From Afipia sp. (GTDB lineage: Bacteria; Pseudomonadota; Alphaproteobacteria; Rhizobiales; Xanthobacteraceae), in the NCBI GenBank assembly GCA_017308595.1, contig JAFKER010000014.1, positions 15,062-79,061 on the forward strand: 64,000 nucleotides of DNA, read 5' to 3'. Below the pieces are notes generated by a model that searched no databases, was not told the DNA's origin, and saw only the letters and a program-made list of their open reading frames with translations. Positions 25,925 through 32,846 of the stretch are shown here, in pieces (positions within the stretch are counted from its first letter, which is position 1; each line of letters opens with the position of its first letter). The position numbers were made by a program, and so were the translations under genes.

Positions 25925-28900
25925 ATGCGCATCGAACGCCGCTACACCAAAGCCGATCAGTCACCCTACGCCGCGATCGATTTCAGACTGACGACAAGCG
26001 AGATCCGCAATCCCGACGGCTCGGTGGTGTTCCGCCTTGAGAACGTGGAAGTGCCGGAGTTCTGGTCGCAGGTCGCCTCCGACGTTCTGGCGCAGAAGTA
26101 TTTCCGCAAGGCGGGCGTCGCCTCGCGCCTGAAGAAGGTCGAGGAAGAAACCGTCCCCTCGTGGCTGTGGCGCTCGGTGCCGGATACCGAAGCTCTCGCC
26201 CTGCTCCCCGAATCCGAGCGGATCGGCGGCGAGCATTCCGCCAAGCAGGTGTTCGACCGCCTTGCCGGCTGCTGGACCTATTGGGGCTGGAAGGGCTCGT
26301 ACTTCTCCTCGGAAGAAGACGCCAAAGCGTTCTACGACGAACTGCGCTTCATGCTCGCCAAGCAGATGGTCGCGCCGAACTCGCCGCAGTGGTTCAACAC
26401 CGGACTGCACTGGGCTTACGGCGTCGATGGTCCCGGCCAGGGCCACTACTACGTGGACTGGAAGACCGGAAAGCTGACCAAATCCAAATCGTCCTACGAA
26501 CATCCGCAGCCGCACGCCTGCTTCATTCAGGGCGTGGACGACGACCTCGTCAACGAAGGCGGCATCATGGACCTGTGGGTGCGCGAAGCGCGCCTGTTCA
26601 AATACGGCTCGGGCACCGGCTCCAACTTCTCGCGCCTGCGCGGCGAAGGCGAAAAGCTTTCGGGCGGCGGCCGCTCAAGCGGCCTGATGAGCTTCCTCAA
26701 GATCGGCGACCGCGCTGCGGGCGCGATCAAGTCGGGCGGCACCACGCGCCGCGCGGCCAAGATGGTCGTGGTCGACGCCGATCATCCGGACATCGAGACC
26801 TATATCGACTGGAAGGTGAAGGAGGAGCAGAAGGTCGCCGCGCTCGTCACCGGCTCCAAGATCAACCAGAAGCACCTCAAGGCCATCATGAAGGCCTGCG
26901 TGAACTGCGAAGGTTCAGGCGACGACTGCTTCGATCCCGAGAAGAACCCGGCGCTGCGCCGCGAAATCAAGCTGGCCCGCCGCGCGCTGGTGCAGGACAA
27001 CCTGATCAAGCGCGTGATGCAGTTCGCCAAGCAGGGCTACAAGGACATCTCGTTCGACACCTATGACACCGATTGGGATTCGGAAGCCTACCTGACCGTT
27101 GCGGGCCAGAACTCGAACAACTCGGTCTCGCTGAAGGATGATTTCCTGCGCGCGGTGGAAACCGACGGCGACTGGAATCTGATCGGCCGCACCAACAAGA
27201 AGGTGACGAAGACCATCAAGGCCCGCGACCTGTGGGAGAAGATCGGTTACGCCGCGTGGGCGAGCGCCGATCCCGGCCTGCACTACAACACCACCATGAA
27301 CGACTGGCACACTTGTAAAGCCAGCGGCGACATCCGCGCGTCCAATCCGTGCTCGGAATACATGTTCCTCGACGACACGGCGTGCAACCTCGCCTCCGCC
27401 AACCTCTTGACCTTCTACGATACGCAGACCCGCCGCTTCGACGTCGAAGCCTACGAGCATCTCTGCCGCCTGTGGACGGTCGTGCTCGAAATCTCGGTGA
27501 TGATGGCGCAGTTCCCGTCGAAGGCGATCGCCGAACTCTCCTACGAATTCCGCACGCTGGGCCTCGGCTATGCCAACATCGGCGGCCTGCTGATGACCAT
27601 GGGTCTATCCTACGACTCGAAGGAAGGCCGCGCGCTCTGCGGCGCGCTGACCGCCGTCATGACCGGCACGAGCTACGCCACCTCGGCTGAAATGGCGAAG
27701 GAGCTTGGCCCCTTCCCCGGCTACAAGAAGAACGCCGCGCACATGCTGCGCGTGATCCGCAACCATCGCCGCGCCGCGCACGGCGAAGCGACGGGCTATG
27801 AAGCGCTCGCCGTCAATCCGGTGCCGCTCGATCACGCAAGCTGCCCGCAGGGCGACATCGTGACCCGCGCCAAGGCGATCTGGGATGCGGCGCTCGACCT
27901 CGGCCAGCAGCACGGCTACCGCAACGCGCAGACCACGGTGGTCGCGCCGACCGGCACCATCGGCCTCGTGATGGACTGCGACACCACGGGCATCGAGCCG
28001 GACTTCGCGCTGGTGAAATTCAAGAAGCTCGCTGGCGGCGGCTACTGGAAGATCATCAACCGCGCAGTCCCCGAAGCGCTGCGCGCCCTCGGCTATCCCG
28101 AAAGCGAGATCGCCGAGATCGAAGCCTACGCTGTCGGTCACGGCTCGCTCGGTCAGGCGCCGGGCATCAACCGCTCGACCCTGAAGGCCAAGGGCTTCAC
28201 CGATGAAGCCCTCGACAAGATCGAGAAGCAGCTGCCGACCGCCTTCGACATCAAGTTCGCCTTCAACAAGTGGACGCTGGGCGAAGACTTCCTGCGCGAT
28301 ACGCTCAAGATCGATCCGGAAGCGTCCAACGCGCCGGGCTTCGACCTGCTCGCCGCGCTCGGCTTCACCAAGCGCGAGATCGAAGCCGCCAACGTGCACA
28401 TCTGCGGCGCGATGACGGTGGAAGGCGCGCCGCACCTCAAGGCCGAACACTACAGCGTGTTCGACTGCGCCAATCCCTGCGGCAAGATCGGCAAGCGTTA
28501 CCTGTCGGTGGAAAGCCACATCCGCATGATGGCGGCCTCGCAGCCCTTCATCTCGGGTGCGATCTCCAAGACCATCAACATGCCGAACGACGCCACGGTG
28601 GAGGACTGCAAGTCCGCTTACCTGCTGTCGTGGAAACTCGCGCTCAAGGCCAACGCGCTCTATCGCGACGGCTCGAAGCTCAGCCAGCCGCTGAATGCAC
28701 AGCTCATCAGCGACGATGACGAAGACGAAGACGTGATCGAGGCGTTCCACGACAAGCCGATGGCGGCACGCACCGCCCAGGTGTCGGAGAAGATCGTCGA
28801 GAAGCTGGTCGAGCGTATCGTGGTGATGCGCGAGCGCGAGAAGATGCCGGATCGCCGCAAGGGCTACACCCAGAAGGCCGTGGTCGGCGGGCACAAGGTT

Positions 28901-29677
28901 TATCTCCGCACCGGCGAATACGATGACGGCCGCATCGGCGAAATCTTCATCGACATGCACAAGGAAGGCGCGGCGCTGCGCTCCTTCGTCAACAACTTCG
29001 CCATCTCCGTCTCGCTGGGTCTCCAGTACGGCGTGCCGCTGGAAGAATATGTCGACGCCTTCACCTTCACCCGCTTCGAGCCCGCAGGCCCCGTGCAGGG
29101 CAACGACTCGATCAAGTTCGCGACCTCGATCCTCGACTACGTGTTCCGCGAACTGGCCGTGAGCTACATGGGCCGCTTCGATCTCGGACATGTCGATCCG
29201 AGCGACATGGGCTTCGACGCGCTCGGCAAGGGCGTCGAAGAAGGCAAGGCGCCCGAAGCCCACGGCGCAACCAAGTATCTGTCGAAGGGCCTCACCCGCT
29301 CACGCACGGATAATCTGGTGGTGATGCGCGGCGGCGCTGCGGCCATCACGGCGAACGACGACAGCGCGCCTGCGGGCGGCGCGAAGGTGACGGCGCTCTC
29401 GGGCGCACATGTGGGCGACAGTGTGGACGGCGCGGTGGCCCTCAAAGTGGCCGAGCCCGAGCGCGATCTCTCGCCGACGGAAAAGCTGGAAGCGCAAGCG
29501 TGGAGCAAAGCGGGCTCAGCGGCACAGGCCGCGCCATCCAAGGCCGAGCGCCGCGCCGAAGCAAAAGCCCGCGGCTACGAGGGCGACATGTGCACGGAGT
29601 GCAGCAACTTCACGCTGGTGCGGAACGGCACGTGCATGAAGTGCGATACGTGTGGCAGCACGACGGGGTGTTCGTGA
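25925..29677 (+). CDS. nrdJ: Vitamin B12-dependent class II ribonucleotide reductase with TSCPD domain and C-terminal zinc ribbon
   Basis: [35 protein letters not shown]; ISKTINMP; YRDGSK; C-terminal CTECSN...CDTCG. Confidence 0.96.
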
Positions 29678-29695
29678 GGCATTAAAGAAACAGCT

Positions 29696-29725
29696 AAATG
29701 GCCGCCCTTTTGAGCGGCCATTTTT
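29696..29725 (+). terminator. nrdJ intrinsic terminator
   Basis: aaatggccgc...gcggccattttt, 18 bp after the nrdJ stop. Confidence 0.8.
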
Positions 29726-29774
29726 GCTTATTCAAAAAGATGGGGAAAAGCTGACACGGACCCGCTTGCAGAAC

Positions 29775-29789
29775 GAACAAAGCATGATC
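29775..29789 (+). promoter_or_regulatory. Possible alphaproteobacterial LexA (SOS) box
   Basis: GAAC-aaagcat-GATC, one mismatch to GAAC-N7-GAAC, in the AT-rich promoter region of the island. Confidence 0.4.
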
Positions 29790-29837
29790 GAGGTATATCC
29801 TAAAATGAGGCAGAACTGATTCGTTCGGCCTGAAATA

Positions 29838-29980
29838 CCAATGCCGAGGCGAACCTCGGCATTGGAACCCGCGAAGCACTGTTGAGGTACTTACGGGGGC
29901 ATCGAGAAAGCAGACGCTTCCTCTCAGTGGCATGAGCAGTTAAGCGATTCTGCAGTCCGGCGTCCAGCGGAGCCTCAACG
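29838..29980. ncRNA. Putative structured RNA or leader upstream of the CBASS operon
   Basis: Perfect 12-bp hairpin ccaatgccgagg-cgaa-cctcggcattgg (29838-29865). A long-range stem gttgagg(29881-29887)/cctcaac(29973-29979) encloses three short hairpins. Folded by eye; no known family recognised. Confidence 0.4.
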
Positions 29981-30018
29981 TTTTCCAACGCCTAATACGC
30001 GTAGATGGAGCACGTCTG

Positions 30019-30222
30019 ATGCCAAAGTATACCCGCAACTCCGGGAACGAATGGAACCCCTCTGAGGTCAAACAACTTCGACGAGAAGCCAGTCAAAATA
30101 CGCCAACGCGTGTTATTGGCCTGCATCTCGGGCGCACCGAGAATGCGGTTCGCAATCGAGCTTGCCAAGAGGGCATCTCTCTGAAGCCGACCAACCAATC
30201 TCCCTACAATCGCAAGAAGTAA
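30019..30222 (+). CDS. Small basic HTH-like protein (Myb/GcrA-N-like pattern), first gene of the CBASS operon
   Basis: RBS ggag at 30007-30010; W-x4-V-x2-L...IGLHLGRTENAVRNRA pattern; 13 nt to the next ATG, which has its own RBS. Confidence 0.75.
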   Translation: MPKYTRNSGNEWNPSEVKQLRREASQNTPTRVIGLHLGRTENAVRNRACQEGISLKPTNQSPYNRKK

Positions 30223-30235
30223 CCGGGAGACCGAC

Positions 30236-31123
30236 ATGGTATGGAATGGCGTAACAGCCCGCTTCAAGCAGTTCGACACAAATTTAAGGCTGACTAACGA
30301 CCAAATATCTGACGGAACAACAAAACACAAAGGCATAACAAAATGCCTCAACACCAATTACTACGAGATGTCGTCCGAAACCAGCAACTCGATGCTAGTC
30401 GGATCATGGGGCAAGCAAACGCGCATGCGCCCTCCTCGAGATATTGATCTGCTATATGAACTGCCTACCAGCGTTTACCATCGCTTTGAAAAATATATCG
30501 GCAACAAGCAGTCCGCACTACTTCAAGAAATAAAGGGCGTATTGGAAAAAACATACCCCAGCACGGCAATGCGTGCCGACGGACAGGTAATAATCGTCCG
30601 GTTTAATACAATTAACGTCGAAGTCGTCCCCGCATTTCCGCTGACGAATGGTCAGTACTGGATATGCGACACGAACAACGGCAGAAAATACAAAGAATTC
30701 GACGCCGTTGCCGAAATAGAAAATATGAAAAAAGCCAACAACGAGACAAATGGCAACGCAAGATTTCTTACGAAGTTTATGAAGGCCTGGCAGCGCGAGT
30801 GTAGCGTTCCGATAAAGTCCTTTTGGATTGAATTGCTAGCAATCGATTTCTTGTCGAGTTGGCCATACAAGCAAAGTAGCCCGTTTTATCATGACTGGAT
30901 GACGCGTGACTTTCTAAAATATCTGTGCGGCAAGAAAAACTCGCATATCGTCGTGCCTGGGACTTACGAATATATCGGACTAGGTGACGATTGGTTTAGC
31001 CGAGCCGAGACAGCGCACAATCGCGCTGTGAAGGCGGAGCAATACGAATACAGAGATGAAATCCAAGCTGCAGGTGAGGAATGGCAGAAGATATTCGGCT
31101 CACAGATTCCGATCCACGTGTGA
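30236..31123 (+). CDS. SMODS/cGAS-DncV-like nucleotidyltransferase (CD-NTase)
   Basis: Pol-beta NTase motif VGSWGKQTRMRPPRDIDLL (hGS...DxD); third acidic residue in VEVVPAF; KAWQRE and KSFWIELL C-lobe motifs; EEWQKIFG end; 295 aa; low GC. Confidence 0.9.
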   Translation: MVWNGVTARFKQFDTNLRLTNDQISDGTTKHKGITKCLNTNYYEMSSETSNSMLVGSWGKQTRMRPPRDIDLLYELPTSVYHRFEKYIGNKQSALLQEIKGVLEKTYPSTAMRADGQVIIVRFNTINVEVVPAFPLTNGQYWICDTNNGRKYKEFDAVAEIENMKKANNETNGNARFLTKFMKAWQRECSVPIKSFWIELLAIDFLSSWPYKQSSPFYHDWMTRDFLKYLCGKKNSHIVVPGTYEYIGLGDDWFSRAETAHNRAVKAEQYEYRDEIQAAGEEWQKIFGSQIPIHV

Positions 31124-31644
31124 TGGAATTACGTCGCGCGGAAATCATCAAGGAATGCCTGAGGCAATCTGAATCCTGTCTTTATACATCAACTATGCTC
31201 TTCGCTTGGTTGCGCCGTGTTCGAATTCAAAGGCAATTGTTCGTTGCGCTGCCCATATTACTCGGGGGCCTCGCGGGCGTCACCGTTCTGAAGAATGCTT
31301 GGCCAGATTGGGTAATTGCTGTGCTAGCCCTTGGAGCAAGCCTATTTCCGGCACTGGCTGATGCGCTAAAAATACAGACAAGCGTGGATGAACTAGCTAG
31401 GGCTGCGGCAGAGTATAAGGTCTTACAAGATCGCTTTCGTATCAACGCTAATCTTACTTCGCTGCAAGATGTGGACGAAGCTCAGCGAGTGTTGAGCGAT
31501 CTAATGGATCGGATGGATATAGTACGAAGCACGTCTTTGACACCTCCCGAGAAATACTTCAGCGAGGCGCAACGAAAGATAGATCAGGGACACTATGATT
31601 TCGATGTTGACGACGGTCCATCGAGAAAGAACGAACCAGAGTAG
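31123..31644 (+). CDS. SLATT-family 2TM effector (CBASS membrane effector)
   Basis: TGATG overlap with the CD-NTase stop; two hydrophobic helices (LFVALPILLGGLAGVTVL; WVIAVLALGASLFPALA), then a helical tail ending AQRKIDQGHYDFD, resembling SLATT_5/6. Confidence 0.8.
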   Translation: MELRRAEIIKECLRQSESCLYTSTMLFAWLRRVRIQRQLFVALPILLGGLAGVTVLKNAWPDWVIAVLALGASLFPALADALKIQTSVDELARAAAEYKVLQDRFRINANLTSLQDVDEAQRVLSDLMDRMDIVRSTSLTPPEKYFSEAQRKIDQGHYDFDVDDGPSRKNEPE

Positions 31645-31720
31645 CGCGGATATTGCGTAGCGAAATCTGGGAACGACTGTGTTGCGCACTCCCGCATTGC
31701 GCTTCGCTCCATTGGGCTAG
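31641..31720. repeat. Degenerate GTAG-family REP palindrome
   Basis: Left arm gtagcgcggatattgcgtagcgaaatctggga, right arm tcccgcattgcgcttcgctccattgggcta; the GTAG overlaps the SLATT stop codon. Confidence 0.65.
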
Positions 31721-31823
31721 AGCGTTTCGGTCACCCCAATCACTCAAGCTCTCGTGACCTTGCCTCCTACTCTCCCCATCCCCATCTAGAGCGGACCGGC
31801 CCACGCACGAGTCCCCCGCCTCC

Positions 31824-32846
31824 ATGAAGAAAATCGGCTTTCTGTCCTTCGGCCACTGGTCGCCGTCGTCCCATTCGCAGACACGCTCGGCCTCGGACAC
31901 ACTCCTGCAATCCATCGATCTTGCTGTCGCCGCCGAAGAGCTTGGCGCGGACGGCGCGTATTTCCGCGTGCATCATTTCGCGCGCCAGCTCGCCTCGCCC
32001 TTTCCGCTGCTCGCTGCTGTCGGCGCGAGGACCAGCAGGATCGAGATCGGCACCGCCGTGATCGACATGCGCTACGAGAACCCGCTCTACATGGCGGAGG
32101 ACGCGGGCGCGGCCGATCTCATCTCGGGCGGGCGTTTGCAACTCGGCATCAGCCGCGGTTCGCCCGAACAGGTGATCGAGGGCTGGCGCTATTTCGGCTA
32201 TCAGCCCGCTGAGGGCGAGACCGACGCCGACATGGGACGCCGCCACGGCGAGGTGTTCTACGACATCATTCGCGGCAAGGGTTTCGCGCAGCCGAACCCG
32301 CGCCCGATGTTTCCCAATCCGCCCGGACTTCTCCGGCTTGAGCCGCATTCCGAAGGCCTGCGCGACCGCATCTGGTGGGGCGCGGCCTCAAACGCGACCG
32401 CGCAGTGGGCGGGCAAGCTCGGCATGAACCTGCAAAGCTCAACATTGAAGAAGAACGAGACCAACGAGCCGTTTCACGTCCAGCAGGCGAAACAAATTCG
32501 CCTCTACCGCGACGCCTACAAGGACGCGGGCCACACGCGCCCGCCGCGCGTCTCGGTGAGCCGCAGCATCTTCGCGCTGATGGACGACCGCGACCGCGAC
32601 TTTTTCGGCAACGGCAACGAGGACAGCGATCAGGTCGGGTTCATCGACGCCGACATGCAGGCGATCTTCGGGCGCGGCTATACGGCGGAGCCGGACAAGC
32701 TGATCGACCTGTTGAAGGCGGACGAAGGCATCGCCGAGGCCGATACGCTGTTGCTGACGGTGCCCAATCAGTTGGGCGTCGATTACAATGCTCATGTCAT
32801 TGAATCGATCCTGAAGCATGTCGCTCCGGCGCTCGGCTGGCGCTGA
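31824..32846 (+). CDS. LLM-class (luciferase-like) flavin-dependent oxidoreductase
   Basis: MKKIGFLSFGHW, FRVHHFA, RIEIGTAVIDMRYENP, GRLQLGISRGS. Confidence 0.92.
   Translation: MKKIGFLSFGHWSPSSHSQTRSASDTLLQSIDLAVAAEELGADGAYFRVHHFARQLASPFPLLAAVGARTSRIEIGTAVIDMRYENPLYMAEDAGAADLISGGRLQLGISRGSPEQVIEGWRYFGYQPAEGETDADMGRRHGEVFYDIIRGKGFAQPNPRPMFPNPPGLLRLEPHSEGLRDRIWWGAASNATAQWAGKLGMNLQSSTLKKNETNEPFHVQQAKQIRLYRDAYKDAGHTRPPRVSVSRSIFALMDDRDRDFFGNGNEDSDQVGFIDADMQAIFGRGYTAEPDKLIDLLKADEGIAEADTLLLTVPNQLGVDYNAHVIESILKHVAPALGWR

Follow-up and report, generated by a model that had tools for sequence, protein, structure and literature searches.

What is a 67-residue protein doing at the head of a CBASS operon? 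Its gene lies in a 64,000-nt stretch of Afipia sp. DNA (the window, here always meaning that whole stretch), directly ahead of a CD-NTase gene, and the original prediction was that it may be a new CBASS accessory component. The features on which the answer depends are the following.

25925–29677, + strand: nrdJ, class II ribonucleotide reductase with a C-terminal Zn ribbon, the conserved left flank (ORF; Pfam domains of the L010 orthologue)
29696–29723, + strand: intrinsic terminator of nrdJ (10-bp stem, then TTTTTGCTT)
29764–30018, + strand: 5′ leader of the 67-aa gene, with a predicted structured core at 29832–29988 (conservation, RNAalifold, covariance model)
30008–30011, + strand: Shine–Dalgarno GGAG of the 67-aa gene (sequence; a comparable purine-rich motif in most homologous loci)
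30019–30222, + strand: the 67-aa gene, predicted single-repeat Myb/SANT-like (GcrA-DBD-like), with the invariant tail GISLKPTNQSPYNR (ORF, homologues, fold, dN/dS)
30223–30235, + strand: 13-nt spacer opening with CCGGGA, the bases with which the L013 terminator stem starts, and holding the GGGAG ribosome site of the CD-NTase
30236–31123, + strand: CD-NTase (SMODS), cargo (PADLOC PDLC00814, E 6e-134)
31081–31644, + strand: SLATT/2TM effector, cargo, overlapping the CD-NTase gene (PADLOC PDLC00706, E 1e-67)
31665–31697, + strand: probable degenerate remnant of the 67-aa gene's terminator hairpin, behind the CBASS (aligns to L013:6211–6239)
31824–32846, + strand: luciferase-like monooxygenase, the conserved gene to the right of the variable slot (Pfam; syntenic with L013:7359–8381)

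The 67-aa ORF is a genuine gene, far beyond what a chance ORF would offer. It starts with ATG, preceded at 8 nt by GGAG, and its TAA stop is separated from the CD-NTase ATG by 13 nt; the ribosome site, short spacer and shared strand originally described all agree with the window sequence. A purine-rich Shine–Dalgarno-like stretch (mostly AGGAG or GGAG) lies ahead of the start in most of 80 homologous loci. Against close relatives (L013–L015) dN/dS is 0.06–0.07, and synonymous sites are saturated in 14 of the 15 other loci compared, which together argue for selection on the protein, not on a DNA site embedded in its gene. Neither PADLOC nor NCBIfam holds a model for the protein, and a full-text literature search found no paper describing a family of this Myb-plus-tail type.

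The stretch LGRTENAVRNRA is a Myb signature, resembling the canonical Myb string PGRTDNAIKNHW. Pfam Myb_DNA-binding (PF00249) matches weakly, below its gathering threshold (E 0.037; 14.6 bits vs a 24.4-bit cut-off), and a PDB sequence search with the family profile gave only a marginal match to the DMP1 Myb domain (2llk, E 0.38). The AF2 model (pLDDT 78.6) places helices at residues 14–25, 30–37 and 41–51, followed by a disordered tail. Foldseek pairs this model with the GcrA DNA-binding domain, Cdc5 and MYB88 (probability 0.91–0.98), the best-quality match being the GcrA domain 5yiu (probability 0.98, rmsd 0.9 Å over 44 residues); neighbours in the ESM Atlas agree with a Myb/GcrA-DBD-like fold, and a fold search of Swiss-Prot returned no characterized small analogue. 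The model has the marks of the Myb/SANT (homeodomain-like) HTH superfamily: a three-helix bundle whose last helix serves for recognition, and a GRT...A..R signature between the second helix and the third. With a pI of 10.6 the protein is also basic, so that the Myb/SANT- or GcrA-like basic HTH first proposed is borne out by charge, modelled helices and the 5yiu match. The tail singled out at the same time, GISLKPTNQSPYNR, proves invariant in the family, within a block (residues 27–65, NTPTRVIGLxLGRTExAVRxxAxxxGxSLKPTNQSPYNR) that hardly varies at all. Modelling thus presents a one-repeat Myb/SANT-type protein, a three-helix HTH with an invariant basic tail, and its fold, charge and tail suggest that it binds DNA. 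The tail could lie in a groove, much as arms do in homeodomain and single Myb proteins. Domain fusions among distant homologues are mostly tandem HTH repeats, with one nucleoside-deoxyribosyltransferase-like and one Xre fusion, and offer no clear functional lead.

The family is large. Searching a set of 5.8 billion proteins gave 5,099 clusters of homologues at 90% identity, the best 120 of which are 67–100% identical and nearly all 65–74 aa long; a profile search of 50%-identity representatives gave 2,604 clusters with E below 1e-3 and 527 below 1e-10. A scan with one genome per GTDB species found the gene, at 63–90% identity, in at least 590 species. Carriers belong to nearly all bacterial phyla: Alpha-, Beta- and Gammaproteobacteria, Bdellovibrionota and Myxococcota; Acidobacteriota, Gemmatimonadota, Nitrospirota, Verrucomicrobiota, Planctomycetota, Bacteroidota, Ignavibacteria and Chlorobi; and Actinomycetota, Clostridiales, Omnitrophota and several CPR groups. 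Rhodopseudomonas sp. AAP120, a Nitrobacter sp., Dongia sedimenti and Metallococcus carri are cultivable carriers. Copies from Bdellovibrionota and Harrisonbacteria (CPR) are 75–79% identical to the window protein. Within the window's own genus one of three other genomes has a match, at 54%, and within its taxonomic family 27 of 151 do, mostly at 50–58% and representing a sister subfamily. The gene is therefore patchy in occurrence and has spread horizontally.

Homologues with 55–61% identity also occur in temperate Pseudomonas phages (YMC11/02/R656, vB_PaeS-D14H, AUS531phi, Cruim01 and Aurca01), and a PHROG of phage ‘transcriptional regulators’ includes the domain (E 4.5e-10). Both records inspected (YMC11/02/R656 and AUS531phi) show the gene as a lone moron, on the opposite strand within the tail-gene cluster; no convincing gamma-type SOS box was found upstream of it. 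The phage regions (L102:4661–5000 and L103:3886–4600) hold 340–700 nt of non-coding DNA ahead of the gene, unrelated to the leader of the alphaproteobacterial copies, which may contain hairpins of its own. Judged from its sequence and distribution, the 67-aa gene is an autonomous, horizontally mobile unit, not a CBASS subunit.

How, then, did it come to stand before a CBASS? The CD-NTase and its SLATT effector constitute a type I CBASS, for which a CD-NTase and an effector are enough; the 67-aa gene is absent from PADLOC CBASS models. Relatives possess the small gene without this system. Leader and ORF run directly into a terminator-like hairpin, with no CBASS, in L091, L013, L015 and L019, and in L010 a different small ORF takes the place behind the gene, again with no CBASS. 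The latter (L010:5228–5539, from Nitrobacter) begins 23 nt behind the gene; this uncalled ORF encodes 103 aa including a (GYP)n repeat and has a good ribosome site. In L013 and the window alike nrdJ, leader and 67-aa gene come first and the luciferase-like monooxygenase last; what lies between is a terminator and an M78 peptidase in L013, and the CBASS in the window. Positions 31732–31835, upstream of the monooxygenase, align to L013:7265–7370. The L013 terminator hairpin aligns to window positions 31665–31697, behind the effector gene, with a score of 33 (shuffles, 19.8 ± 3.6; reached by 11 of 2,000), a short alignment of 33 nt with p about 0.006. GC content steps from 0.64 in nrdJ to 0.53 in the leader and ORF and 0.47–0.49 in the CBASS, and then returns to 0.64. 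L014 carries a cyclase 70% identical to that of the window, in the same place with a different junction. Taken together, these alignments make it probable that the CBASS cassette was inserted between the stop codon of the 67-aa gene and its terminator, that is, in its 3′ UTR. Acquisition would have been nested, a leader–ORF–terminator unit arriving first and a low-GC CBASS cassette of ~1.44 kb entering its 3′ UTR later. From that position the CBASS is now most likely transcribed from the promoter and leader of the small gene, the two probably forming one transcript in the window. The three-gene-plus-RNA architecture originally envisaged does not hold up, since the leader belongs to the 67-aa gene and the CBASS looks like a secondary insertion; the window would contain an ordinary two-gene system joined to the transcription unit of another gene.

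The leader itself points the same way. Its core is 70–88% identical in 12 distinct alphaproteobacterial loci, and RNAalifold assigns it a hairpin and a multi-helix domain (39 pairs, 12 with double-sided changes). Covariance model R1, which also matches the leader in L014 and L085, found none outside the alphaproteobacterial nrdJ-linked lineage, and none in other phyla or phage loci. With matches confined to one lineage, the leader appears to be a lineage-specific attribute of the small gene, not a CBASS element, and its RNA does not accompany the protein in general. Rfam searches of 29400–30400 returned nothing credible, only matches over the nrdJ terminator far below gathering scores. Contigs from RNA libraries (a relative, and soil and bioreactor metatranscriptomes) join the leader to the start of the ORF, a weak sign of expression that falls short of proving transcription.

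Two conserved GANTC sites occur in the leader (TGATTCG and CGATTCT, at 29818–29826 and 29943–29950). Both fit the extended YGAKTCK motif reported for GcrA, of which about 0.3 sites would be expected by chance in 290 nt. As autoregulatory sites they were rejected, being two only in a family found mostly in phyla without CcrM, and the pair may be a coincidence of a conserved leader.

If the gene is autonomous, its surroundings elsewhere should indicate what it serves. We surveyed the 80 best-scoring of at least 590 GTDB loci, clustering and annotating the neighbours, building HMMs from those that recur and rescanning the loci with them; ORF calls are crude, and because these are the top-scoring loci, related genomes among them, they cannot be counted as independent. 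Within 3 kb, 21 of the 80 have an ImmA/IrrE-type M78 peptidase, 13 have NrdJ (upstream, on the same strand) and 13 have LexA; at least one of the three is present within that distance in 41 loci, and upstream in 35. Of 63 upstream neighbours PADLOC recognizes five as capP, five as capH and eight as RmrA. Five genomes were checked for the LexA DNA-binding domain: in four the best match (in three of them the only one) is the gene adjoining the 67-aa gene, and the fifth gave no match, so the neighbour is probably the host's own lexA. The small gene follows lexA by 1–31 nt in L045, L063, L064 and L082, and elsewhere diverges from it. None of eight loci of the sister subfamily (about 55% identity, from the window's taxonomic family) has NrdJ, LexA or M78 within 1.5 kb.

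Downstream, the first gene differs in almost every locus. Recognized among them are, for example, AbiTii, AIPR, HigB and multiubiquitin, ThsB-like and CAP12 TIR proteins, a SMODS cyclase, a type IIG RM enzyme, a C5 methylase, BglII and the PADLOC candidates PDC-M30B, PDC-M41B and PDC-S13; many downstream genes have no known domain. In another relative the 67-aa gene precedes a 51-aa ORF and then a 1,192-aa SIR2 protein. A same-strand ORF begins no more than 40 nt after the stop in 28 of the 80 loci, and a strong hairpin directly behind the stop makes the gene apparently monocistronic in 29. Downstream cargo is thus hypervariable and often anti-phage, and is tightly coupled in about a third of loci. 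With defence genes on both sides, the small gene may simply live in defence islands. The expectation that homologues would keep company with CBASS or other defence genes was right in its wider part, the family being enriched next to defence genes, and failed for CBASS itself, as just 5 of 81 loci (the window, L014, L045, L063 and L020, where the CBASS is upstream) have a SMODS cyclase within a distance of 6 kb. Two of these, from other phyla, are operons with the orders LexA–67aa–SLATT–SMODS (Flavobacteriales) and LexA–67aa–x–SMODS/AGS-C (a 0.9-Mb genome). A k-mer search of 160 nt upstream or downstream of the gene in 71 loci recovered AT-rich and ribosome-site words only and no shared operator; neither the autoregulator first suggested nor cis-regulation of the cargo is thereby supported by sequence.

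With modest confidence, we read the locus as an autonomous gene for a small Myb-type DNA-binding regulator whose transcription unit the CBASS has joined, a unit that defence cassettes would exploit. Its setting is one of DNA damage or replication stress, the gene standing across bacteria beside host lexA, nrdJ and CapH/CapP-like or other ImmA/IrrE-type M78 modules. Its product, presumably a small transcription factor or DNA-binding switch, would be made when lexA, nrdJ or CapH/CapP-controlled units are induced. It would act on a target that stays the same whatever the cargo, as suggested by a protein sequence that does not co-vary with its neighbours and by the lack of a detectable shared operator.

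A bolder proposal, which we consider rather unlikely, makes the protein a phylum-spanning ‘head’ regulator of defence operons, a switch induced by damage or infection that sits behind LexA or CapH/CapP-type sensors and licenses or times toxic cargo; in a variant it would be a minimal anti-phage factor competing with GcrA-like or Myb-like phage activators. A universal target in place of a locus-specific operator would let such a head regulator cross phyla almost unchanged.

The recurring peptidase suggests another role, as a substrate or partner of M78. The 67-aa protein would then be a Myb-type analogue of CapH, ImmR or DdrO, cleaved on DNA damage (perhaps in the invariant tail), and the window would have lost its peptidase. 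Besides the frequency of M78 within 3 kb and the five capP assignments upstream, the Nitrobacter-type order favours this: there nrdJ is followed by a Zn-ribbon M78 peptidase, and this in turn by the leader and the small gene, with no Pfam-recognized HTH gene called within 5 kb. However, M78 is missing from the surroundings in most loci, the window among them; apart from the NrdJ tail, nothing in the window's genome is homologous to the M78–Zn-ribbon peptidase; and several M78 neighbours already own a fused Xre HTH or an adjoining CapH-like partner. Complex prediction for the Nitrobacter peptidase with the 67-aa protein scored 0.00, which counts neither for nor against. On balance we think the role unlikely.

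In Nitrobacter-type loci the peptidases that separate nrdJ from the 67-aa gene carry at their C-terminal end a CxxC-N(17)-CxxC zinc ribbon, 53% identical over 43 residues to the C-terminal zinc-ribbon tail of NrdJ (window 29543–29671; peptidases compared, L010:4033–4689, L011:4903–5625, L013:6322–7098 and L112:1927–2643). In L112–L118 about 25 nt at the nrdJ stop are shared with the peptidase ORF. The ribbon is either a functional domain like the NrdJ tail or a scar of insertion into the 3′ end of nrdJ.

Equally improbable is a stand-alone effector acting on a universally conserved target, for example as a damage-induced checkpoint or nucleoid protein or as a dominant-negative competitor of phage GcrA-/Myb-like activators, with the cargo incidental. 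Near-invariance of residues 27–65 across many phyla while neighbours change would suit such an effector, as would the monocistronic copies, the prophage morons and the commonness of GcrA-domain proteins in phages. So would the position beside lexA, where SOS checkpoint genes (sulA, yneA and sosA) sit in other bacteria. The protein lacks membrane or FtsZ-type features, though, and tight coupling to cargo in 28 of the 80 loci suggests a functional tie downstream.

Very unlikely is a passive landmark, that is, a gene with a function unrelated to defence whose 3′ end and terminator are merely favoured by incoming cassettes, in the way that tRNA genes are by islands. The window would fit, its insertion point falling exactly between stop and terminator and its cargo differing from that of a close relative (L013) with both flanks in common. 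Against this, no recombinase or repeat system is consistently alongside; the gene, itself patchy and low in GC (0.53 vs 0.64), looks mobile, not core; and free variation at its synonymous sites leaves no room for a conserved DNA site within the ORF. About as unlikely, finally, is a dedicated CBASS accessory that autoregulates the operon or directly activates or inhibits the CD-NTase: probable co-transcription at 13 nt from the cyclase start and SMODS operons behind the gene in three distant lineages (the window with L014; Flavobacteriales L121; L123, the 0.9-Mb genome) speak for it, but 76 of 81 loci have no SMODS, the gene stands alone in relatives and phages, the CBASS looks inserted into its 3′ UTR, and the cyclases behind it belong to different families and gene orders while the protein stays about 65–90% identical, a constancy despite changing neighbours that makes a direct effect on the synthase, as once proposed, unlikely.

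Among known regulators, those that co-localize with many defence systems (WYL, CapH/CapP and RptR) would be the nearest functional analogy for an autonomous Myb-type regulator. Published reports describe the WYL-domain regulators CapW/BrxR as co-localizing with many defence systems (PMC9122601), CapH/CapP as regulators found with defence systems (bioRxiv 10.1101/2022.04.27.489752) and RptR as a defence-system regulator (PMC12255303). The 67-aa family resembles CapW/BrxR in that one family is tied to many unrelated defence systems and islands, but lacks the wHTH–WYL–WCX architecture and a ligand-sensing domain. CapW/BrxR regulators are roughly 300 aa long; too short at 67 aa to hold a WYL domain, which neither Pfam nor PADLOC nor NCBIfam detects in it, the protein is not one of them. 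Nor is it CapH, having no PADLOC capH match, no M78 in the window and no M78–Zn-ribbon homologue elsewhere in the genome; in setting both aside the original prediction was correct. With the pairs CapH/CapP, ImmR/ImmA and DdrO/IrrE it has in common that a small HTH protein heads defence operons, often beside M78 and linked to DNA-damage genes. Yet CapH, ImmR and DdrO combine an Xre-type HTH with a dimerization domain, whereas the 67-aa protein is Myb-type and monomer-sized, and its gene, instead of replacing a CapH/CapP-like or LexA module, is often found behind a complete one.

By predicted fold the closest relative is GcrA, whose N-terminal domain (5yiu), like Myb/SANT repeats, has a three-helix Myb-type HTH and a GRT-x-NA-V/I-R/K-N signature. 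Unlike GcrA, the 67-aa protein has neither linker nor sigma70-binding C-terminal domain, carrying the invariant tail instead, and its family reaches far outside Alphaproteobacteria. GcrA proper (PF07750; a DNA-binding domain and a C-terminal sigma70-interacting domain, about 170 aa) was rejected, as only the DNA-binding part is alike and PF07750 does not match. RM controller (C) proteins and RptR are comparable in being small HTH proteins whose gene comes first, often translationally coupled to a potentially toxic gene. C proteins are Xre-type and depend on conserved upstream C-box operators; the Myb-type fold, the lack of a shared upstream k-mer in 71 loci and cargo that extends beyond RM led us to reject this assignment. 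An obligately toxin-paired type II antitoxin was likewise rejected because solitary copies are frequent, both as hairpin-terminated, apparently monocistronic genes and in phages.

Regulation of anti-phage systems is known for few families only (CapW/BrxR, CapH/CapP, RptR and C proteins). If the 67-aa protein is a regulator, its family would be one more control element of defence islands, and a widely portable one; if it is not, a conservation so extreme still speaks for a universal target, cellular or phage. As many tightly coupled downstream genes have no known domain, the gene could serve as a cheap genomic marker for new defence genes.

Two recurrent neighbours deserve mention. A multiubiquitin set (a ubiquitin-like conjugation cluster in which ThiF/DUF6791 and DUF6527 lie behind multiubiquitin, for example L058:6232–8049) adjoins the 67-aa gene in four loci from different phyla (L055, L058, L072 and L076). 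Directly behind the gene in four others is a family of 214–283 aa without known domains, save for a weak TerB-like hint (L018:1234–2085, L020:6204–7052, L023:1319–1963 and L038:6251–6952), from three Bdellovibrionota genomes and one of Actinomycetota. Its members overlap the 67-aa gene in two loci and follow it by 4 and 43 nt in the others, and the family is a candidate cargo or defence gene.
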